Positions 1,131 to 64,000 of a stretch of 64,000 nucleotides of DNA are shown piece after piece. Under the pieces are notes generated by a model. The model saw only the letters and a list, made by a program, of their open reading frames with translations. It had not been told where the DNA came from and searched no databases. A program made the translations under genes and the position numbers. Origin of the DNA: Mobula hypostoma (lineage: Eukaryota); NCBI RefSeq assembly GCF_963921235.1, contig NC_086097.1, positions 166,472,001-166,536,000 of the forward strand. The letters are read 5' to 3'. How positions within the stretch are numbered: the stretch's first letter is position 1; each line of letters opens with the position of its first letter.

Positions 1131-1134
1131 CAAT

Positions 1135-1794
1135 TGTAGCCCCACTGGCCACCTTCAGGGTCGCTCGGCTCGCTGTCGTCTAGGGAAACAACCCTCGGCC
1201 CCGCCAAACTGGGTAATTAGTTTGTGTAGATGCTGTGTGATGTACCCCACCCTGCCCAAATAACAGACAATACACCAGATACGATTAAATGATTTACAGT
1301 TTACAGATATTACTGGAACTATATAATTGATAGAGAATAAAATATAAAAGGAAAATAAAAGGTGCCACACTTATCAAAGTTCAATCTCTTTGTGCACAAA
1401 ACAGTTGGAGCTCAAGAACCTTCTTCTTCACCCTGTGACCCCTCGGACCACCTCGACCAGCCGCCTGGGACCAACAACGATGGTCGACCAGACGCTCCAC
1501 ACGAGTCCATCTCTGTCTCCTCGCCAAACGCCCTCCTCGGGGTCCGACCCCGTTAGCGGACATCACAGCACCTGGTCCATCCTCTGTCTCACTCTCCCGC
1601 CTTCTCCCCCAAAAATCCGCGCATACAAATCTCCCAGATACACCAAAAGCATAACAACTATCCCAGTTGGTTAATAGCACCCTGCTGTCTGTATTAACCC
1701 AAGCAAATGTCTAGCTAGAGGTTTTCTCAGCATTTAACATAACAAAGAAGCCATTTTAATTAGCCTACGCAGTAAAAGACGAAACCCTCTTACA
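1135..1794 (-). mobile_element. 3' LTR of a Gypsy-type retrotransposon (660 bp)
   Basis: Minus strand starts TGTAAG (1794) and ends GCTACA (1135). It is immediately preceded on the minus strand by a polypurine tract tggtggagggagag (1808-1795). Confidence 0.85.
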
Positions 1795-3705
1795 CTCTCC
1801 CTCCACCAAATAAAGTCATGTCTTCATGACTTCTAAATAACTCGCCAACCAGTCTTGCAGACACACAACACACACATACACAGATACACACAGTGACAGT
1901 GCTCCCCAAACAGTGGACCTTACGCCTGTCCCACGGGCGCTACATAGGCCAACCTATCTGGGAGCTTCTTAACCCTCCAAGACCTCCGTACCCCCTCACC
2001 TAAACCCAAAAGGCTCAGACACTACTAGGGATACCTCGGGCCTGCTTGCCAACTCCTCTCTCACTCAGGCCACCACTACAGCTCGGAGCCCCCTGTCCCG
2101 TGTCCGGAGCCCCGCCTCTCCTCCTTCCTGATTCTGCCATAACTCAGACTGCCCACAGCTGGCCCTCCCCACTACACCTGACTCAGTGGGAGAAGGGCCA
2201 AAGGTCTCTTCATCAATCATGGGGAAGTTAGCGAAAGGCAGCATGTACCATATGTGCAGCACATCATCCTTCGAATCCGTATTCTTCCTCATTCCCTCGT
2301 TTGGTAGATGCTGTTTAAGTTTCTCCAAACTGAAACATTTAGCCGGGGCTACCCCTTCAGCCTCCTGCAGTCGAGACGTCAGCTTCTTCGGGGACTCCTT
2401 CAACTCTCGCCACAGCCTCAGCAGTTCTGACTCAGGGTTCTTGGCCATCTCAATCTGGGACGCAGTTACCCCACCAGCTTCTTCCACCCTGACCTGAAAA
2501 GCAGCAGTTAAAGAATGTTCAGCCTCCGGTTTTTACTTCCTGATGACGTCTTCCAGGTGAACGTTCAGTTTTTCCACTTCATTTAAACTGTCAGTAGTCA
2601 TCTTCAGGCTCCTTTCAAGCGTCCGTCTCCCCTTTCCGAGATCTGTCCTCCATTTCTTCACCTCCTCGGGAGTGTAGTGAAACTCCCCTCCCTGGGCTCT
2701 CGGTTTTCTGTTGGCCTTAGTCAGAACACTTCCTTGATCTTCCCCAACTTGTAAGTCTTCCAATCTTTTCTGAATCGACGTCTTGAGTTTCCACTGATCC
2801 CTTCAAAGGTGGTCATTGTTTCTGCTCGCTGGATTAATTCATCAGTACATGACCGCAGTGTCGGCTTAGAATTCTGTTGCTCCTTCTCCACGTTGACGAG
2901 CGTGAATTCCAAGTCTGCAATGGTCATTCCACAAGTGTGGCACTCAGTCTCCGGCTGGCATTTCTGAGCACTCAGTTCAGCAGTGCAAATCCCCTCTCTC
3001 CCCTGTGTCTCATTCAGATTGACAACCTGGGTTTCCATCCCCAGGTCCACCACCATCTGTTCCAACAACAGGAAGTTCAACTGGTATCTCGGGTCATTTT
3101 TCTCACATTGCACCAAACTCCTCCGGCCAAAAAATCCTCCACATTTGACACTTCGCTTCTGTCGCCCGGGCTCAGTCACTCACCTCGCTTCATAGTCCCC
3201 CAGGCGAATCCAAGCTCTAGACGGTCATCCACATACGCCAAAACTCCACACACCTTCACTTCCCCCATGGTCTTCCTCATGCCCTGCGGGAAGGATGCAA
3301 GGGCTCCGGATATGCCCTTGGGCATCTTTTCGGATCGGAAGAATCCTAGGGAACTAATAACGGCCGTCTTCGGCTCAACAGCCGCACTCCTTGGGATCTG
3401 GCAACATCCACTCCTCAGATGCAGCACATTAAACCACGTCGCATAATCCACACACACGCTGCCTCCATCTTCCACTGCGCCAGGGTCCAGTTGCCACGAC
3501 CGCGGTCTTCAGCGGTCAACTCCCCTCCCTCGTGGTGGTCCGGAGCATCTACTAAGAGGGTCTCACCCTCAGCTACTTTCCCCAGACCGTACCACCACTG
3601 GGATTCGCTTAAATTCGGTACCGGATTTAAGGCTGCTACACACGTCCTCAGAAGCAACTCGACATGCTGGGTGCCCAGACAGTGCCCCCATGAACTCCAC
3701 AATGC
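1795..3705 (-). mobile_element. Gypsy internal region: deleted RT, captured myosin segment and pol C-terminal tail; 5' truncated
   Basis: RT motifs in ORF 3176-3475 ([37 protein letters not shown] at 3235-3224). Gypsy pol C-terminal motif EGVRRSWRVKKLPDRLAY at about 1995-1944, followed by PPT and LTR. Confidence 0.85.
2296..3180 (-). pseudogene. Processed, internally deleted sarcomeric myosin heavy chain rod fragment (MYH16-like) inside the Gypsy element
   Basis: Consecutive peptides [102 protein letters not shown] and [24 protein letters not shown] follow the order of the myosin II S2/LMM rod as recalled. No introns; frameshift and stops present. Confidence 0.82.
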
Positions 3706-4450: not shown

Positions 4451-4671
4451 CAAATGTCTAATTTCTGAGGTGGCAGAACTGATGAATAAAGAAAAATCCA
4501 GATGTTTCACCATATGTTCACTAGAGTTTGGATTATTGAGAGTGCATATCAAAGTTCAAAGTAAATTTATTATTAAAGTATGTCATCATATACATCCCTG
4601 ATATTCATTTTCTTGTGGGCATTCACTGTAAGTACAAAGAAACAAAAAACAAACAAAATAATAATAATAAA

Positions 4672-6090
4672 TTCAGAATCAGAATCAGGTTTATTAACAC
4701 CAGCATGTTGTAAAATTTGTTAGCTTAGCAACAGCAGTTCAATGCAATACGTAAAATAGAAGAAAGACAGAAATAATAAATAAATAAGTAAATCAATTAC
4801 AGTATACATATATTGAATAGATTAAAAAATGCAAAAAACAGACAAATATATATTAAAAAAGTGAGGTAGTGTTCAGGGGTTCAATGTCCATTTAGGAATT
4901 CGATGGCAGAGGGGAAGAAGTTGTTCCTGAATCACTGAGTGTGTGCCCTCAGGCTTCTGTATCTCCTACCTGATGGTAACAGTAAGAAAAGGGCATGCCC
5001 TGGGTGCTGGAGATCCTTAATAATGGACACTGCCTTTCTGAGACACCGCTCCTTGAAGGTGTCCTAGGTACTTTGTAGGCTAGTACCCAAGATGGAACTG
5101 ATTAAATTTACAACCCTCTGCAGCTTCTTTCAGTCGTATGCAGAAGCCCCTATCCCCATACCAACATGATGCAGTCTGTCAGAATGCTCTCCACGGTACA
5201 TCTATAGAAGTTCTTGAGTGTAGTTGTTGACATGCCAATCCTTTTCAAACTCCTAATAAAGTATAGTCGCTGCCTTGCCTTCTTTATAACTGCATCGATA
5301 TGTTGGGACCAGGTTAGGTCCTCAGAGATCTTGACACCCAGGAACTTGAAACTGCTCACACTCTCCACTTCTGACCCCTCTATGAGGATTGGTATGTGTT
5401 CCTTTGTCTCATCCTTCCTGAAGTCCACCATCAGATCTTTCGTCTTACTGATGTTGAGTGCCAGGTTGTTTCTGCGACACCACTCCACTAGTCGGTATAT
5501 CTCGCTCCTGTATGTCCTTTAATCTCCATCTGAGATTTTACCAACAGCGGTTGTATGATCAGCAAATTTATAAATGGTACTTGAGCTATGCCTAGCCACA
5601 CAGTCATGGGTATATAGAGAGTAGAGCAGTGGGCTAAGCACACCCCCCCGAGGTGCACCAGTGTTGATCGTCAGCGAAGAGGAGATGTCATCACCAATCC
5701 GCACAGATTGTGGTCTTCCAGTTAGGAAGTTGAGGATACAATTGTAGAGGGAGGTATAGAGGTCCAGGTTCTGCAACTTTTTGGGAATTGTAGGAATGAT
5801 AGTATTAAATGCTGAGCTATAGTTGATGAACAGCATCCTGACATAAGTGTTTGTGTTGTCCAGGTGGTCTAAAGCCATGTGAAGAGCATTTAAGATTGCA
5901 TCTTCTGTTGACCTATTGCGGCGATAGGCAAATTGCAATGGGTCCAGGTCCTTGCGAAAGCAGGAATTCAGTCTAGTCATGACCAAACTCTCAAAGCATT
6001 TCATCACTGTAGATGTGAGTGCTACTGGGCGATAGTCATTAAGGCAGCTCACATTATTTTTCTTAGGCACTGGCATAATTGTTGCCTTGA
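4672..6090 (-). mobile_element. Rex1/Babar-type LINE, 5' truncated, with RT domain
   Basis: ORFs 5519-6076 ([48 protein letters not shown]) and 5150-5488 (FKFLGV.ISEDLTW, KKARQRLYF). The (ttctga)n tail is at 4672-4688. Confidence 0.9.
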
Positions 6091-6149
6091 AATTATTGTT
6101 ATAGTTGAGGGGTAATAACAGACTTGAAATTATTGTTATAGTTGAGGAT

Positions 6150-6575
6150 TAATAACTGTTCCTGAACCGGGAGGGTGTAGGTCCTGAGACTCCTGTACTT
6201 CCTTCCTGATGACGGCAGCAAGAAGCGAGCATGGCCTGGAAAGTGTGGGTCCTTGAAGAAGGACGATGCTTTCCTGCATTACCACTCCATGTAGGTATGC
6301 CCAATGGTGGAGAGGGCTCTATCCATGATGGATTGAGCTAGATCCACTACTTTTTGTAGACTTTTCCATTTAAGGGCATGATGCAACCAGTCAATATACA
6401 CTACACAACACACCTATAGGCTTGTCAAAGTTTTAGGTGCCATGCCGAATCTTCACAAATTTCTGCAAGAGTAGAAGAGTTGCTGTGTTTTCTTCATAAT
6501 GACACTTACGTGCTGGACCCAAGACAAATACTGCAAAATGATTACACTGATGAGTTTAAAGTTGCTGACCCTTCT
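6150..6575 (-). mobile_element. Older Rex1/Babar-type LINE fragment
   Basis: Degenerate similarity to the C-terminal coding part of 4672-6090. Confidence 0.6.
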
Positions 6576-9399: not shown

Positions 9400-9865
9400 A
9401 TGAAGAAAAAGGCATGCCAGTGGCAGTACTTCATTAGGAGTTTGAGGAGATCTGGTATGTCACCAAAGTCTCTATCAACTTTCTATACATGTAGATGCAC
9501 GGTGGAGAATATTTTGTCTGGTGCATGACTGCCTGCTATGGAGGCTCCAAAATGCAGGATCAAAAGAGGCTGCAGAGGGTTATAGACTCAATCAGTTCCA
9601 TCATGGCTACAAGCCTCCCCACCATCGAGGGCATCTTCAAGAGCTGGTGCCTCAAGAAGGTGGCATCCATCATTAAGGACCTTTATCGTCACGGTCTTGC
9701 CGCTTCTCAATACTACCATCAGGTAGGACATAAAGGTGCCTGAAGACTCGCATTCAACATTTTAGGAGCAGCTTCTACCCCTCCACCAACAAATTTCTGA
9801 ATGGTCCATGTACACTACCTTGCTATTATTTTGTGCTATTTACTTATTTATCGTTTATAAGTTTG
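9400..9865 (+). mobile_element. Rex1/Babar-type LINE 3' fragment
   Basis: CMTACYGG...KRLQRV...SLPTIEGIF...CLKKVASIIKD in ORF 9495-9743. Confidence 0.7.
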
Positions 9866-15084: not shown

Positions 15085-16694
15085 CAGGTTTCCCCCGCCA
15101 TCCGAAGGTAGAGCATTCCTATGAAATGGTTCGTAAGCCGAAATGTCGTAAAGCGAAGAAGCAATTACCATTTATTTATATGGGAAAATTTTGTGAGCGT
15201 TCGCAGGCCCAAAAATAATCTAACAAATCATGCCAAATAACACGTAAAACCTAAAATAACAGTAACATATAGTAAAAGCAGGAATGATATGGTAAATACA
15301 CAGCCCATATAAAGTAGAAATACTTCTCTACAACGATTGCCTGCACAGATCTCTGTAGCGAAAATCTCACGCAAGCGCTCTCGGCAGAAAATCTCACACA
15401 AGCGCTGTTGGCATAAACGCGCTCTCCAGTAACCTTTAAGCTATGAAGCTGCCAAATCTACCAAATAACACATAAAAATACACAGTCTATATAAAGTAGA
15501 AATAATGTATGTACAGTGTAGTATCACTTACGGAATCAGGAAGACAACTTGCCGAGTAAACTGATGATGGTGTGTTAGACTAAGTCGTCGCAGGCTGGGT
15601 AGTGCAGTGGAGCCCACCCTCTGGGCCGCTGACCCAATACATTGCCGCGAAGAACACAGCAGTAGCCGGGAGGCACACAGCACATCTTTAAGAAAAAAGC
15701 CGAAATAAACATGCTAATTAATTAGGTGCCGCCGACACGTAATTGTCGGCCTAGATCAGAGACGACGCAATCGGAAATCGGCACTGATCTGGGCTGACAA
15801 TTACGTGTCGGTTGCACCTAATTAATTAGCTTGTTTATTTCAGCTTTTTTCTTAAAGATGTGCTGTGTGCCTCCCGGCTACTGCTGCATTCTCCGCGAAT
15901 CGATACAGTACCTGTCCGGGGCCCGGGTGTTGGGGTGGTGGGACACGGGGGTGTCATCTCATCATCGATCCCGGCAGACAGCTCATCTTCTCCTATGACT
16001 GCCCGCCTCGATGTTGAAGATTGAGGTTCGTCGTCTGCTGTGGCTGATGTGGAGGACTTGCTTGACTGCTGAGCCTTGCGCATTTTTCTATCATACAGTT
16101 GTTTGTAAGGACTCAAACCATCCTGCAAATATCCCCTAAACCTACATACCCTTTCAAAATTAAAGTCGTACTCTATCATTGCAGCGAAAATCTCACGCAG
16201 TCACTTTCAGTCCGTTCGCTACTGCATTCAGTTTTGATTGTTATCCTTTCCTCTTCCAATTGCATCAGCTCTTCATCTATCAGTTCTTGGTCATGGGATG
16301 CCAAGACCTCTTCAACATCATCTTCGTCAGCTTCCACAAGCCAAACTCACTTTGTCCTTGCTTCGTTCACCACGATCAAAACGCTTAATTATGTCTAGTT
16401 TTACCCTAAATGTAACACCCTTACGAGATCTTTTAGGCTTTTCCAATACCTCAGAACTCATCTTGCTAACGGCTGCTAACAGGCACGTGTTTAAGCAATG
16501 CTGTTCCGAATCCGGGGGCAGAGCGGCTGCTCAGGACGCGAGCTGCCTTTTATCGCGTGCCGATTTTTTATCGCGCGTTGCCTTTCTTTGTAACAGTGAA
16601 AACACCTTCTGAAAGTGAAAACAGGGTACTAATGTAGGTCTTTTGTAACAGTGAGGTTTCGTAAAGCGAATGTTCGAAAAGCGGGGGACACCTG
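15085..16694 (-). mobile_element. Tigger/pogo-type DNA transposon, internally deleted
   Basis: TIRs caggtttcccccgccatccgaa and reverse-complemented caggtgtcccccgcttttcgaa, TA duplication at 15083-84 and 16695-96, transposase C-terminal remnant on the minus strand (ORF 15835-16179). Confidence 0.9.
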
Positions 16695-20944: not shown

Positions 20945-21855
20945 AAACAACAGGAATTCTGCAGATGCTGGAAATTCAAGCAACATACATCAAAGTTGCT
21001 GGTGAACGCAGCAGGCCAAGCAGCATCTATAGGAAGAGGCGCAGTCGACGTTTCAGGCCGAGACCCTTCGTCAGGACTAACTGAAGGAAGAGTGAGTAAG
21101 GGATTTGAAAGCTGGAGGAGGAGGGGGAGATGCAAAATGATAGGAGAAGACAGGAGGGGGAGGGATAGAGCCGAGAGCTGGACAGGTGATTGGCAAAAGG
21201 GGATACGAGAGGATCATGGGACAGGAGGTCCGGGAAGAAAGACAAGGGGGGGGGTGACCCAGAGGATGGGCAAGAGGTATATTCAGAGGCACAGAGGGAG
21301 AAAAAGGAGAGTGAGAGAAAGAATGTGTGCATAAAAATGAGTAACAGATGGGGTACGAGGGGGAGGTGGGGCCTTAGCGGAAGTTAGAGAAGTCGATGTT
21401 CATGCCATCAGGTTGGAGGCTACCTAGACGGAATATAAGGTGTTGTTCCTCCAACCTGAGTGTGGCTTCATCTTTACAGTAGAGGAGGCCGTGGCTAGAC
21501 ATGTCAGAATGGGAATGGGATGTGGAATTAAAATGTGTGGCCACTGGGAGATCCTGCTTTCTCTGGCGGACAGAGCGCAGATGTTCAGCAAAGCGGTCTC
21601 CCAGTCTGCGTCGGGTCTCACCAATATATAAAAGGCCACATCGGGAGCACCGGACGCAGTATATCACCCCAGTCGACTCACAGGTGAAGTGATGCCTCAC
21701 CTGGAAGGACTGTTTGGGGCCCTGAATGGTGGTAAGGGAGGAAGTGTAAGGGCAGGTGTAGCACTTGTTCCGCTTACACGGATAAGTGCCAGGAGGGAGA
21801 TCAGTGGGGAGGGATGGGGGGGACGAATGGACAAGGGAGTTGTGTAGGGAGCGAT
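20945..21855 (-). mobile_element. Penelope-like element, 5' truncated, with GIY-YIG endonuclease and 3' repeat
   Basis: ORF 21374-21898 FTCESTGVIYCVRCSRCGLLYIGETRRRLGDRFAEHLRSV...QPDGMN. 14-bp TSD aaagaataaagggt at 20931-20944 and 21878-21891. Confidence 0.93.
21043..21078 (-). ncRNA. Minimal type I hammerhead ribozyme motif in PLE 3' repeat
   Basis: Minus strand AGUC-CUGACGA-AGGGUCUCGGCCU-GAAAC-GUC/GACU: stem I AGUC/GACU, intact CUGANGA and GAAA boxes, GUC triplet. Predicted cleavage between 21047 and 21046. Confidence 0.78.
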
Positions 21856-23476: not shown

Positions 23477-24266
23477 ACATAAAAGTTGCTGGTGAACGCA
23501 GCAGGCCAGGCAGCATCTCTAGGAAGAGGTGCATTCGACGTTTCAGGCCGAGACCCTTCGTCAGGACTAACTGAAGGAAGAGTGAGTAAGGGATTTGAAA
23601 GTTGGAGGGGGAGGGGGAGATCCAAAATGATAGGAGAAGACAGGAGGGGGAGGGATGGAGCCAAGAGCTGGACAGGTGATAGGCAAAAGGGATACGAGAG
23701 GATCATGGGACAGGAGGTCCGGGAAGAAAGACAAGGAAGGGGAGGACCCAGAGGATGGGCAAGGGGTATATTCAGAGAGACAGAGGGAGAAAAAGGAGAG
23801 TGAGAGAAAGAATGAGTGTATAAAAATAAGTAACAGATGGGGTACGAGGGGGAGGTGGGGCCTTAGCGGAAGTTAGAGAAGTCGATGTTCATGCCATCAG
23901 GTTGGAGGCTACCCAGACGGAATATAAGGTGTTGTTCCTCCAACCTGAGTGTGGCTTCATCTTTACAGTAGAGGAGGCCGTGGATAGACATGTCAGAATG
24001 GGAATGGGATGTGGAATTAAATGTGTGGCCACTGGGAGATCCTGCTTTCTCTGGCGGACAGAGCGTAGGTGTTCAGCAAAGCGGTCTCCCAGTCTGCGTT
24101 GGGTCTCGCCAATATATAAAAGGCCACATCGGGAGCACCGGACGCAGTATATCACCCCAGCCGACTCACAGGTGAAGTGTTGCCTCACCTGGAAGGACTG
24201 TTTGGGGCCCTGAATGGTGGTAAGGGAGGAAGTGTAAGGACATGTGTAGCACTTTTTCCACTTACA
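23477..24266 (-). mobile_element. Penelope-like element copy with GIY-YIG (frameshifted)
   Basis: Highly similar to 20985-21780; ORF 23889-24188 GVIYCVRCSRCGLLYIGET. Confidence 0.93.
23533..23568 (-). ncRNA. Hammerhead ribozyme motif with one stem I mismatch
   Basis: Minus strand AGUC-CUGACGA-AGGGUCUCGGCCU-GAAAC-GUC/GAAU. Confidence 0.62.
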
Positions 24267-25382: not shown

Positions 25383-26857
25383 TTGTTTAAAAAGGGTTCC
25401 AAGACTAAACTTAGCAATTATTTGTTTAAAAAGGGTTCTAAGACTAAACCTAGCAATTATCGGCCAGTGAGTTTGACGTCAGTGGTGGGTAAATTGATGG
25501 AAAGTATTCTTAGAGATGGTATATATAATTATCTGGATAGACAGGGTCTGATTAGGAACAGTCAACATGGATTTGTGCATGGAAGTTCATGTTTGACAAA
25601 TCTTATTGAATTTTTTGAAGAGGTTACGAGGAAAGTTGACGAGGGTAAAGCGGTGGATGTTGTCTATATGGACTTCAGTAAGGCCTTTGACAAGGTCCCA
25701 CATGGAAGGTTGGTTAGGAAGGTTCAATCGTTAGGTATTAATATTGAAGTAGTAAAATGTATTCAGCAGTGGCTGGATGGGAGACGCCAGAGAGTGGTGG
25801 AGGATAACTGTTTGTCAGATTGGAGGCCGGTGACTAGTGGTGTGCCTCAGGGATCTGTACTGGGTCCAATGTTATTTGTCATATACATTAATGATCTGGA
25901 AGATGGGGTGATAAATTGGATGAGTAAGTATGCAGATGATACTAAGATAGGTGGAGTTGTGGATAATGAAGTAGGTTTTCAAAGCTTGCAGAGAGATTTA
26001 GGCCAGTTAGAAGAGTGGGCTGAAAGATGGCAGATGGAGTTTAATGCTGATACATGTGAGGTGCTACATGTTGGTAGGACTAATCAAAATAGGACATACA
26101 TGGTAAATGGTAGGGCATTGAAGAATGCAGTAGAACAGAGAGATCTAGGAATAATGGTGCATAGTTCCCTGAAGGTGGAATCTCATGGGGATAGGGTGGT
26201 GAAGAAAGCTTTTGGTATGCTAGCCTTTATAAATCAGAGCATTGATCATAGGAGTTAGGATGTAATGCTGAAATTATACAAGGCATTGGTGAGGCCAAAT
26301 TTGGAGTATTGTGTACAGTTTTGGTCACCAAATTCTAGGAAAGATGTCAACAAAATAGAGAGAGTACAGAAAAGATTTACTGGAATGTTACCTGGGTTTC
26401 ATCACCTCAGTTACAGAGAAAGGTTGAAGAAGTTGGGTCTTTATTCTTTGGAATGTAGAAGGGTGAGGGGGGACTTGATAGAGGTCTTTAAAATTATGAG
26501 GGGGATAGATAGAGTTAACGTGGATAGGCTTTTTTCCATTGAGAGTGGGGGAGATTCAAACAAGAAGACATGGGTTGAGAATTAGAGGACAAAAGTTTAG
26601 GGGTAACATGAGGGGGAGCTTCTTTACTCAGAAAGTGGTAGCTGTGTGGAACGAGCTTCCAGCGGAAGTGGTTGAGGCAGGTCCTATGTTGTCGTTTAAA
26701 GTTAAATTGGATAGATATATGGACAGGAAAGGAATGGAGGGTTATGGGCTGAGTGCAGGTTGGTGGGACTAGGTGAGAGTAAGAGTTCGGGGCGGACTAG
26801 AAGGGCCGAGATGGCCTGTTTCTGTGCTGTATTTGTTATATAGTTATATGGTTATAT
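25383..26857 (+). mobile_element. CR1 LINE, 5' truncated, near-intact RT
   Basis: ORF 25383-26258 (NYRPVSLTS, QHGF, MDFSKAFDKVPH, GVPQGSVLGP, YADD) and ORF 26265-26585; (ggttatat)n-like tail. Confidence 0.93.
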
Positions 26858-39493: not shown

Positions 39494-40750
39494 ACAGTCA
39501 ACATAGATTTGTGCGTGGAAGGTTATGTTTGACAAATCTTATTGAATTTTTTGATGAGGTTACTAAGAAAGTTGACAAGGGCAAAACGATGGATGTTGTC
39601 TATATGGACTTCAGTAAGGCCTTTGACAAGGTTCCACACGGAAGGTTGGTTAGGAAGGTTCAATCGTTAGGCATTAATATGGAAGTAGTAAAATGGATTC
39701 AGCAGTGGCTAGATGGGAGACGCCAGAGAGTAGTGGTGGATAACTGTGTCAGATTGGAGACGGTGTGTAGCGGTGTGCCTCAGGGATCTGTACTGGGTCC
39801 AATGTTGTTTGTAATATATATTAATGATCTGGATGATGGGGTGGTAAATTGGATGAGTAAGTATGCAGATGATACTAAGATAGGTGGAGTTGTGGATGAA
39901 GAGGTAGGTTTTCAAAACTTGCAGAGAGATTTAGAACAGTTAGAAGAGTGGGCTGCAAGATGGCAGATGGAGTTTAATGCTGAAAAATGTGAGGTGCTAC
40001 ATTTTGGTAGAACTAATCAAAATAGGACATACATGGTAAATGGTAGGGCATTGAAGAATACTGTAGAACAGAGGGATCTAGGAATAATGGTGCATAGTTC
40101 TCTGAAGATGGAATCTCATGTGGATAGGGTAGTGAAGAAAGCTTTTGGTTTACTGGCCTTTATTAATCAGAGCATTGAGTATTAATAAGGCCAAACCTGG
40201 AGTATTGTGTACAGTTCTGGCCACCCAATTATAGGAAAGATGTCAATAAAATTGAGAGAGTACAGAGGAGGTTTACTAAAATGTTGCCTGGGTTTCATCT
40301 CCTAAGTTACAGAGAAAGGTTGAACAAGTTAGGTCTTTATTCTTTGGAGCGTAGAAGGTTGAGGGGGGACTTGATAGAGGTGTTTAAAATTATGAGGGGG
40401 ATTGATACAGTTGACGTGGTTAGACTTCTTCCATTGAGAGTGGGGAAGATTCAAAGAGGACATGGGTAGAGAGTTAGAGGACAAAAGTTTAGGAGTAACA
40501 TGAGGGGGAACTTCTTTACTCAGAGAGTGGTAGCTGTGCGGAATGAGCTTCCAGCAGAAGTGGTTGAGGCAGGTCCTATGTTGTCGTTTAAAGTTAAATT
40601 GGATAGATATATGGACAGGAAAGGAATGGAGGGTTATGAGCTGAGTGCAGGTCGGTGGGACTAGGATAGGGCAAGAGTTCAGCACGGACTAGAAAGGCCG
40701 AGATGGCCTGTTTCCGTGCTGTAATTGTTGTATGGTTATACAGTTATACA
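39494..40750 (+). mobile_element. CR1 LINE, 5' truncated, same subfamily as 25383-26857
   Basis: ORF 39490-40185 with DFSKAFDKVPH, GVPQGSVLGP and YADD; near-identical 3' UTR. Confidence 0.93.
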
Positions 40751-44035: not shown

Positions 44036-45300
44036 TGCTGATCTATTGCCACAGTAGGTCAATGGCAAACGCAATCTCAATGGCTCTCCACACGGCCTTA
44101 GACCACCTGGACAACACAAACACCTATGTCAGAATGCGGTTCATTGACTATAGCACAGCATTTAACACCATCATTCTCACAATTCTCATTGAGAAGTGCA
44201 GAACCTGGGCTTCTGTACCACCTTTTGCAAATAGATCCTTGACTTCCTAACTGGAAGACCACAACCTGTGCGGATTGGTGATAACGTATCCTCCTCATTG
44301 ACAATCAACACTGCTGCACCTCGGGTGTGTGCTTAGCCCACTGCTCTACTCTCTATACCCATGACTGTGTGGCTAGGAATAGCTCAAATACTACCTATGA
44401 GTTTGCTGAGGATACAACCACTGTTGGTAGAATCTCAGATGGAGACGAGAGGGCGTACAGGAGTGAGATATGCCAACTGGTGGAGTGCTGTCACAGCAAC
44501 AACCTTGCACTCAACGTCAGTGAGATGAAAGAGCTGATTGTGGACTTCAGGAAGGGTAAGACAAAGGAGCACATACCAATCCTCATAGAGGGATCAGAAG
44601 TGGAGAGTGTGAGCAGTTTCAAGTTCCTGGGTGTCAAGATCTCTGAGGATCTAACCTAGTCCCAACATATTGATGCAGTTATAAAGAAGGCAAGATAGCG
44701 TCTATAGTTCATTAGGAGTTTGAAGAGATTTGGAATGTCAACAAATACACTCAAACTTCTATAGTTGTACTGTGGAGAGCATTCTGACAGGCTGCATCAC
44801 TGTCTGGTATGGGGGGACTACAGCACAGGACCAGAAGAAGCTGCAGAGGGTTGTAAATTTAGTCAGCTCCATTCTGGGTACTAGCCTACAAAGTACGCAG
44901 GACATCTTCAAGGAGCGGTGTCTCAGAAAGGCAGTGTCCATTATTAAGGACCTCCAGCACCTAGGGCATGCCCTTTTTTCACTGTTACCATCAGGTAGGA
45001 GGTACAGAAGCCTGAAGGCACCCACTTAGCAATTCAGGAACAGCTTCTTCCCCTCTGCCATCCGATTCCTAAATGGACATTGAACCTGTGAACACTACTG
45101 CGCTTTTTAAATATACAGTATATTACTTCTGCTTTTTGCATGATTTTTATCTATTCAATTACATATACTGTAATTGATTTACTTATTTCTCATTATTTTA
45201 TTTTTTTCTTCTATATTATGTATTGCATTGAACTGCTGCTGCTAAGTTAACAAATTTCACGACACATGCCAGTGATAATAAACCTGATTCTGATTCTGAT
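44036..45300 (+). mobile_element. Rex1/Babar-type LINE, same subfamily as 4672-6090
   Basis: [37 protein letters not shown]; (ttctga)n tail at about 45283-45299. Confidence 0.9.
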
Positions 45301-63604: not shown

Positions 63605-64000
63605 GAGAATTACAATCACAATCAGGTTTATTATCACTGGCATATGTAGTGAAATTTGTTTACTTCGAGGCAGCAGTATAATGCTGTACATGATGATACA
63701 GAAAAAAATAAGTCAATTACAGTAAGTATGTATGTATATTAAATAGTTAAATTAAAAATAGTTCAGAAATAGAAATAATATTTTAAAAAAAGTGAGGTAG
63801 CGATCATGGGTTCAATGTCCAAATAGAATTCGGATGGCGGAGGGGAAGAAGCTATTCCTGAGTTTCTCAATGTGCGCCTGTAGGCTTCTGTTATCTCCTT
63901 CCTGATGTTAATAATGAGAAAAGGGCATGCTCTGGGTGATGGGAATCCTTAATAATGGACGCTGCCTTTCTGAGGGACCACTCCATGAAGATGTCTTGGA
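63605..64000 (-). mobile_element. Rex1/Babar-type LINE 3' end running off the window
   Basis: Similar to 4672-5060 (aatcaggtttattatcactggc...ggggaagaagctattcctga). Confidence 0.82.

Follow-up and report, generated by a model that had tools for sequence, protein, structure and literature searches.

The window examined here, a 64,000-nucleotide stretch of the genome of the ray Mobula hypostoma (NCBI RefSeq assembly GCF_963921235.1, contig NC_086097.1, forward-strand positions 166,472,001 to 166,536,000), contains on its minus strand, from window position 3699 to 1135, a dead, 5'-truncated member of a family of long terminal repeat (LTR) retrotransposons that, judged by their sequence, are of the Gypsy type; embedded in its pol gene is a piece of spliced muscle myosin messenger RNA (mRNA). 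An earlier interpretation made from the letters alone (the sequence-only reading) had proposed that such an mRNA was captured by template switching and then spread as a non-autonomous family; our results support that proposal and revise several parts of its anatomy.

The element is flanked by the target-site duplication ATTG. The left copy (3700..3703) sits in the 3' tail of a long interspersed nuclear element (LINE), and the same four bases adjoin the LTR end as the right copy (1131..1134); the corresponding empty site differs at one base from a LINE tail that is intact elsewhere in the window (45214-45229). Reading along the minus strand, remnants of the linker between protease and reverse transcriptase (RT) and of the RT N-terminus (3444..3699, from alignment to older copies of the family) begin at an internal TG at 3699, which replaces the formerly assigned start at 3705. 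They are followed by an RT remnant (3183..3443, by translation) with YVDD at 3235-3224, of which 3443-3270 is 80% identical to an RVT_1-positive frame of copy L055, and by an RNase H remnant (3052..3121) that is 72% identical to the RNase H region of copies L055 and L056 (PF17917/PF17919 in copy L053); in the older copies, the counterpart of window 3120-3046 is RNase H sequence. The myosin part follows at 3051-2295 (~755 bp), with its 3' junction, GAGG, placed by junction alignments at 2298-2295. Downstream lie the C-terminal tail of Gypsy pol (2065..2294; 77% identical to the myosin-free relative L059), which translates in frame with the myosin to a stop at 2067-2065, a polypurine tract (1795..1812) immediately 5' of the LTR's TG, and the 3' LTR (1135..1794; 660 bp, TG..CA). 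The YVDD motif, the LTR, the purine tract just 5' of it and a 3' junction near 2296 had all been recognised in the sequence-only reading; its insert start at 3180 and length of about 880 bp give way to 3051 and ~755 bp, and the 'EKND' that it assigned to myosin lies in the RNase H remnant, as aligned to older copies (PF17917 in L053).

None of the four window frames tested gave a Pfam match (0/4), because this copy alone is too decayed. It lacks a 5' LTR and ~900 bp of gag-protease: homology to the other copies ends at or just short of 3699, whereas they extend for another ~900 bp, up to a 5' LTR. The truncation goes back either to an integrase that took an internal end or to a deletion between the first TG of the LTR and this one. 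A one-LTR copy flanked by a 4-bp duplication at an internal TG (3699-3703, 1131-1134) is a possible case of aberrant integration.

The myosin insert and its donor gene

The insert resolves into four pieces. The first (2874..3051) is bases 51-228 of the donor gene's 228-nt exon, from the subfragment 2 (S2) region of the rod, and matches donor exon L065 at 137/178 bases. The second (2487..2873) comprises the exons of 105, 87 and 146 nt in the MYH16 map and part of one of 91 nt; it is 58-67% identical to the spliced map of the host's MYH16, spans the map's exon junction at position 813, and has a 27-nt deletion inside and a 126-nt deletion at its end. In the third (2395..2486), the last part of the donor's 87-nt exon is followed directly by the first part of the 246-nt exon (31/32 and 53/60 identical), and the fourth (2295..2394), beyond a 624-nt deletion, contains the last bases of the 197-nt exon and the 133-nt exon (72/89 to donor exon L067). 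The rod segments are thus collinear, as had been claimed, but the mRNA is not continuous: three stretches, of 27, 126 and 624 nt when measured on the MYH16 exons, are missing.

That these are sequences of a myosin II rod, and not of a generic coiled coil, is indicated by several comparisons. When window 2727-3176 was searched against the PDB, all 11 matches were myosin heavy chains (best E 9e-5); with 2290-2790, the 11 best of 16 were myosins (best E 3e-5), and the matches are collinear with S2 and light meromyosin. A DNA alignment to the host's spliced MYH16 scored 142, against 24-28 for five shuffles; it replaced a free-gap alignment that yielded noise. A large protein search returned six matches, the sole full-length protein among them being a skate myosin-16-like protein; PF01576 matched the donor exons weakly. 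The absence of introns, also noted previously, is confirmed by donor exons that abut at 2455/2454 (87 + 246 nt; the gene's intron is 2.7 kb) and at 2390/2389 (197 + 133 nt; intron 24 kb). Furthermore, the less deleted copy L056 spans eight exon junctions of the host MYH16 map without introns (identity 57-69%); therefore, the source was an mRNA.

The ray's own MYH16, on contig C36 (16 of its exons mapped), was considered as donor and rejected: the insert is only 55-56% identical to it in DNA. A search with one conserved exon, in which all 16 candidates were scored, revealed 12 sarcomeric myosin genes, and the donor proved to be a gene on contig C68, at about 14.48-14.71 Mb (G000:C68:14480496-14707477; L063-L068). 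Its six fetched exons are open and bounded by AG/GT. Over the 5 of 12 captured donor exons that the comparison covers, insert and donor have a mean identity of 81.8% in 21/21 copies of the window's subfamily and 90.8% in five of six older copies; the sixth is without those exons. The donor shares the diagnostic rod motifs of MYH16 and has exactly its exon sizes in 5/5 tested, yet is only 59% identical to the ray's own MYH16. On 296 residues, in trees computed without MYH7B and MYH15, it is sister to all sampled jawed-vertebrate MYH16 and outside their crown clade (bootstrap 100 at both nodes). The suggested affinity to MYH16 was thus right as to type, but the donor is a separate, divergent paralogue and not MYH16 itself. 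As for the strong decay that had been read from the protein, odd insert residues that resemble decay are present in the donor exons too, so much of it is native to the donor, which is itself divergent.

This gene may represent an overlooked ancient myosin lineage. In a one-exon tree it groups, at a support of 84, with teleost exon look-alikes (P0225, P0227, P0301), one of them annotated as a putative MYH16 in Sinocyclocheilus. No shark or ray orthologue was found in a profile-free search of cluster representatives with the 228-nt exon, among the 10 viewed of 114 matches. The gene has very large introns and lies ~0.6 Mb from a cluster of eight other myosin genes.

Parent element, junctions and deletions

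An RNase H query scored 40 places in the genome, of which five continue into myosin and 35 end near the same base. Four of four myosin-free relatives that were fetched have RNase H, a linker of about 40-55 nt and the pol tail, in frame where intact; integrase is absent from all four, as it is from every chimeric copy. This myosin-free, integrase-less Gypsy family (L059-L062), which has relatives with PNMA-like gag, is itself abundant. In the older chimeric copies, myosin stands in place of that linker: element bases were replaced, not interrupted, and the frame is kept at both junctions. Accordingly, myosin did not take the place of RNase H and integrase, as the sequence-only reading had it. 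By these alignments, integrase appears to have been gone already in the parent; RNase H was lost later, by deletion in the window's subfamily, where a further deletion took the RNase H end together with the original 5' junction.

At the 5' junction, parent and first donor-exon bases agree at 10 of 11 positions, or 12 of 13 counting the intron's AG; 11-nt matches with at most one mismatch occur at just 7 of 161,973 position pairs. At the 3' end four bases match exactly, and 10 of 12 agree when the comparison is extended. The captured span is ~1.6 kb, provided that donor exon sizes follow MYH16. We regard it as nearly certain that a spliced myosin mRNA was captured by a defective Gypsy-type element and then amplified. 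In the mechanism that we propose, a non-autonomous element that had already lost integrase by in-frame deletion would have been co-packaged with the mRNA of the divergent MYH16-like gene. Helper-supplied RT would have jumped to this mRNA at the 11-nt near-match, at the start of the S2 exon, and returned to the element ~1.6 kb on at a short near-match, thereby replacing the linker of about 55 nt; the junction anatomy is directly visible, and we infer the switching from it.

Since the 5' junction coincides with the first base of a donor exon, we also considered read-through transduction, in which an element in the 44-kb upstream intron was spliced into the myosin exon and one later switch restored the 3' end. 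This is very unlikely: the myosin-free relatives have no GT where the donor site would be needed, and their sharing of 10 of the first 11 exon bases by itself explains why the junction lies at the exon's start. It is more improbable still that the element was transferred horizontally and brought the myosin from a foreign species. The older copies match vertebrate MYH16 at 51-58%, and bony-fish MYH16 as well as or better than the ray's (52-58%), but their identity to the intron-bearing gene of this very genome reaches 88-92%, and an origin in bony fish was rejected once its exons had been found. Although the genome is rich in LINEs, an ordinary LINE-made retrocopy inserted later into a dead Gypsy element can practically be dismissed, refuted as it is by junction alignments: the insert is an internal mRNA piece with neither poly(A) nor a target duplication of its own at its ends, it replaces element bases, it shows microsimilarity at both ends, and it recurs in hundreds of copies with paired LTRs, not in a single one.

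Later deletions of 624, 105, 126, 27 and 837 nt define nested subfamilies. The 624-nt deletion joins GAGGAG to GAGGAG, and all of the myosin deletions examined join repeated Glu/Leu codons; exon skipping was rejected as their cause, the deletion ends not lying at exon ends. A genome search with the conserved exon that the 624-nt deletion removed found no intronless copy of it. Bearing in mind that the chimera retained LTRs, primer site and purine tract, helpers would have continued to copy it, and further switches between repetitive heptad codons would have generated the nested deletions and, with them, several subfamilies.

Amplification, age and distribution

A 901-bp query gave 859 candidates in the 3.48-Gb genome, and 40 of 40 scored places, the window included, are 91-100% identical over nearly full length. 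A 22-base pattern specific to the subfamily, with at most two mismatches, occurs at 386 genomic places (control 0); it would detect 26 of 30 known copies, which scales to a total of ~445. The window's subfamily, one of several that differ by nested deletions, thus occupies at least 386 places and numbers ~400 copies, in agreement with the multiple copies foreseen earlier.

For their structure, 20 of the 30 loci were refetched at 6 kb. Full copies measure ~4.2 kb; an LTR pair is present in 19 of the 20, and a perfect 4-bp target duplication in 11. The LTR-LTR comparison that had been suggested as a dating check gave Kimura two-parameter (K2P) distances of 0.058-0.095 (median 0.069, 19 pairs), a narrow range that indicates a single burst. 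With an elasmobranch rate of 0.5-1e-9 per site per year, a value not derived from this analysis, the burst would date to some 35-70 million years ago. The primer-binding-site pattern, which we take to be that for tRNA-Pro, was matched in two of six copies tested, and a similar stretch is visible in most. The domain order is gag, protease, RT, RNase H (PF14893 PNMA, PF00078 and PF17917 in copies L055/L053); Pfam gave no protease match, and the protease motif AILD was seen by eye. Extra or inverted LTR pieces adjoin some copies (L035:872-1509; L026; L007:3615-3678). G>A and C>T lead among the changes in copies; A>G is not in excess, and adenosine-to-inosine hypermutation was therefore rejected. 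Older copies L053-L058 differ from the donor mostly by G>A (60/161), probably through CpG decay.

Mobula birostris, Mobula hypostoma, Hypanus sabinus and Hemitrygon akajei all have annotated proteins predicted from related copies. The Hemitrygon protein carries the same junction as the 624-nt deletion; hence, assuming vertical inheritance, the capture is older than the divergence of these rays. In a survey of sequencing runs, 20 of 24 rows in six studies contain part of the stretch, with no RNA set listed; contigs of four runs cover 29-30 of 30 bins, but the run type is a guess and strand and level are unreadable, and we drew no conclusion on expression. Runs X9, X13 and X15 contain a variant without 122 bases of window 2860-2983 and with two letters between (net 120); it agrees with the shorter proteins P0001 and P0342, and we read it as a further in-frame subfamily.

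An open frame without protein constraint

A further, unexpected observation is statistical: in the source lineage of the subfamily, both the gag frame and the pol-myosin-tail frame remained without shared stops while the encoded sequence drifted freely. Ancestral states were taken from sharing among copies, no family consensus having been built. When 30 copies were compared with two natural database proteins, the most shared stop position was found in eight. Across the 642 codons of the pol frame, the 20 copies have 57 stops, 28 of them of CpG type, and the most shared occurs in 7/20 copies; the number of positions with a stop in at least 15 of 20 copies is zero in this frame, versus 36 and 40 in the other two. 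The stem leading to the window's subfamily has ~0.14 substitutions per site, for which 11 stops are expected, or 5.6 without CpG events; the probability of zero is 2e-5 or 4e-3, respectively. Under a simple mutation model, 13 stops would be expected in 825 codons. Furthermore, of the 12 stem deletions that are consistent in size in at least two older copies, 11 have a length divisible by three, as judged by eye; the twelfth (274-277 nt) adjoins small indels of older copies. Private indels of at least 6 nt are multiples of three in 8/21.

The gag frame lost 36, 45, 15, 75 and 21 nt. It is offset by -1 from pol in most copies; the idea of one single gag-pol open reading frame (ORF) was rejected, as it holds in only 2/20 young copies. 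A GGGAAAC heptamer in frameshift phase is present in 14/20 young and 3/5 old copies.

The encoded protein shows a different pattern. The ratio of non-synonymous to synonymous substitution (dN/dS), computed without correction for transition bias, is, between old and young copies, 0.84 for gag, 0.80 for protease, 0.74 for RT and RNase H, 0.64 for myosin and 1.23 for the tail; among decaying young copies the corresponding values are 0.67, 0.53, 0.59, 0.67 and 0.84. The former are not below the baseline set by the latter. Changes from the donor are flat by codon position or highest at position 2 (19, 26, 21), and the myosin part is 18% diverged from the donor versus 3.7% decay after insertion. Neither the dN/dS nor the codon-position test detected purifying selection on the captured myosin protein. 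The captured peptide shows no amino-acid constraint; in our explanation, the myosin is stop-free filler. The comparison with retroviral oncogene transduction, drawn at the outset, is apt for the recombination step, but not for what followed.

The stop-free frame, the in-frame deletions, dN/dS at baseline and a reviewed link to nonsense-mediated decay (NMD) together lead us to think that the frame was probably maintained by selection, acting on the translatability of the RNA. A review (PMC10141005) reports that NMD targets retroviral RNAs with long 3' regions and that frameshifting ribosomes strip UPF1 from viral RNA. Selection would then have acted on the passage of ribosomes through the frame instead of on the protein. 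Ribosomes that travel almost as far as the 3' LTR would protect the genomic RNA from NMD, and this would account as well for the sense orientation of the captured piece and for its being in frame at either end. We put forward escape from NMD as the reason for the open frame only tentatively. Capture, copying by helpers, a burst and selection on the frame alone make up, as a whole, the best and a very probable explanation. The general proposition that vertebrate non-autonomous LTR elements are selected for an open frame as such, against NMD, may hold, but we would not yet presume so; we are similarly guarded about its combination with the suggestion, prompted by the passenger, that rays and teleosts share an ancient second lineage of MYH16-like muscle myosins.

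Among readings that keep the same capture and amplification, one has the frame retained for co-translational delivery of the RNA in cis to particles under assembly, or for a residual role of the shrunken Gag or a Gag-Pol-myosin fusion. It is unlikely, though worth weighing: both frames are open, the offset with its slippery heptamer persists, and public annotation predicts proteins of 313-450 amino acids from related copies. On the other hand, a residual protein role sits poorly with a gag that shrank by the five deletions listed above and has a dN/dS of 0.84 against a neutral 0.67, and with a myosin at 0.64 against 0.67 whose changes show the codon-position pattern already described.

Several points weigh against selection on the frame, and a number of them would favour a further alternative, in which the frame stayed open as a mere by-product. 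Template switches among repeats with codon periodicity favour in-frame deletions without selection, as the Glu/Leu codons at every myosin deletion examined illustrate, and the lack of stops could then be luck or an overestimated stem; the stem length is an approximate subtraction of distances, not taken from a tree, and the most cautious expectation is just 5.6 stops. Frame-keeping is not universal, because older copies L055 and L056 share a break in the RNase H frame, and the old copies had been selected for their protein-level score to myosin, a criterion that biases this set towards open frames. The pol frame can be read only with a -1 shift, because gag and pol are in different frames in most copies; only a weak hairpin follows GGGAAAC (z -1.5 to -1.8), and chance could preserve a 7-mer. 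Transcription and helper supply are presumed. We nevertheless consider a by-product improbable: even the cautious estimate leaves a probability of about 0.004, the myosin part diverged far more from the donor than it decayed after insertion, and private long indels lack the bias to multiples of three.

The mechanism of capture is already known; here it was followed by large amplification and nested deletions, with an open frame without protein constraint. A double template switch was described by Tan et al. (2016) as forming LTR-mediated retrocopies in animals (PMC5131818). As in those retrocopies, a partial spliced mRNA in sense orientation replaces part of an element ORF, with microsimilarity at both switch points, and the product can serve as a non-autonomous element. 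The cases of Tan et al. in the passages compared are young, with secondary copying noted for few, whereas the ray element has ~400 copies of one subfamily, subfamilies nested by deletion, a presence in two ray families and a frame kept without protein constraint. Maize Bs1 is likewise a non-autonomous LTR element with pieces of spliced host genes and switch points common to all copies (PMC5131818, PMC13317346), but the parts of these sources compared give it 1-5 copies, pieces from three donor genes and a hybrid protein that is proposed to be functional; the ray element is vertebrate, with one donor, no amino-acid constraint and hundreds of copies, ~100x the number given for Bs1. In the capture of FAM8A1 by HERV-K (PMC5131818), a vertebrate LTR element also took a host mRNA with microsimilarity; that element is of the retrovirus class, not Gypsy, and the product is described there as an untranscribed pseudogene.

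Defective retroviruses that transduce oncogenes fuse host coding sequence in frame to element ORFs and depend on helpers. In them the captured protein is selected, whereas the ray myosin piece drifts neutrally, and the ray element shows no sign of envelope or infection. We found no published description of the ray element; repeat databases, the supplements of the 2016 study and most subscription journals were outside the scope of that search, and comparable cases are possible. The ray family is a vertebrate LTR gene capture in which parent, donor, both junctions and the deletion series are all readable in one genome, and its pattern of an open frame without a protein is a natural experiment, testable on endogenous copies, on why dead retroelements keep ORFs. 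If our interpretation is correct, an NMD rule limits capture to host mRNA pieces that are sense-strand, in frame and without stops, and hundreds of transcribable, translatable chimeric ORFs have formed a standing pool in stingrays and devil rays for tens of millions of years.

Annotation of ray genomes is affected: element copies are publicly labelled 'myosin heavy chain, skeletal muscle-like', 'putative uncharacterized protein MYH16' and even 'glutathione S-transferase theta-2 isoform X1' (GSTT2). The proteins so annotated are P0001-P0005, P0226 and P0341-P0343; P0342 is entirely element-derived, and P0005 mixes element with unrelated exons. P0340, a 54-amino-acid JGI protein in the cluster of P0001, has no visible likeness and is probably a clustering artefact. 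Elsewhere in the window, a minus-strand LINE at 4650-6300 has a nearly open RT frame, with relatives at 44043-45115, 9522-9701 and 63767-63998. Two direct duplications of 88-96% identity are present, 20987-21778 / 23477-24266 (2.49 kb apart) and 25558-26856 / 39494-40748 (13.9 kb), as is an inverted repeat at 15646-15897 with 120-nt arms, 91% complementary and 12 nt apart.

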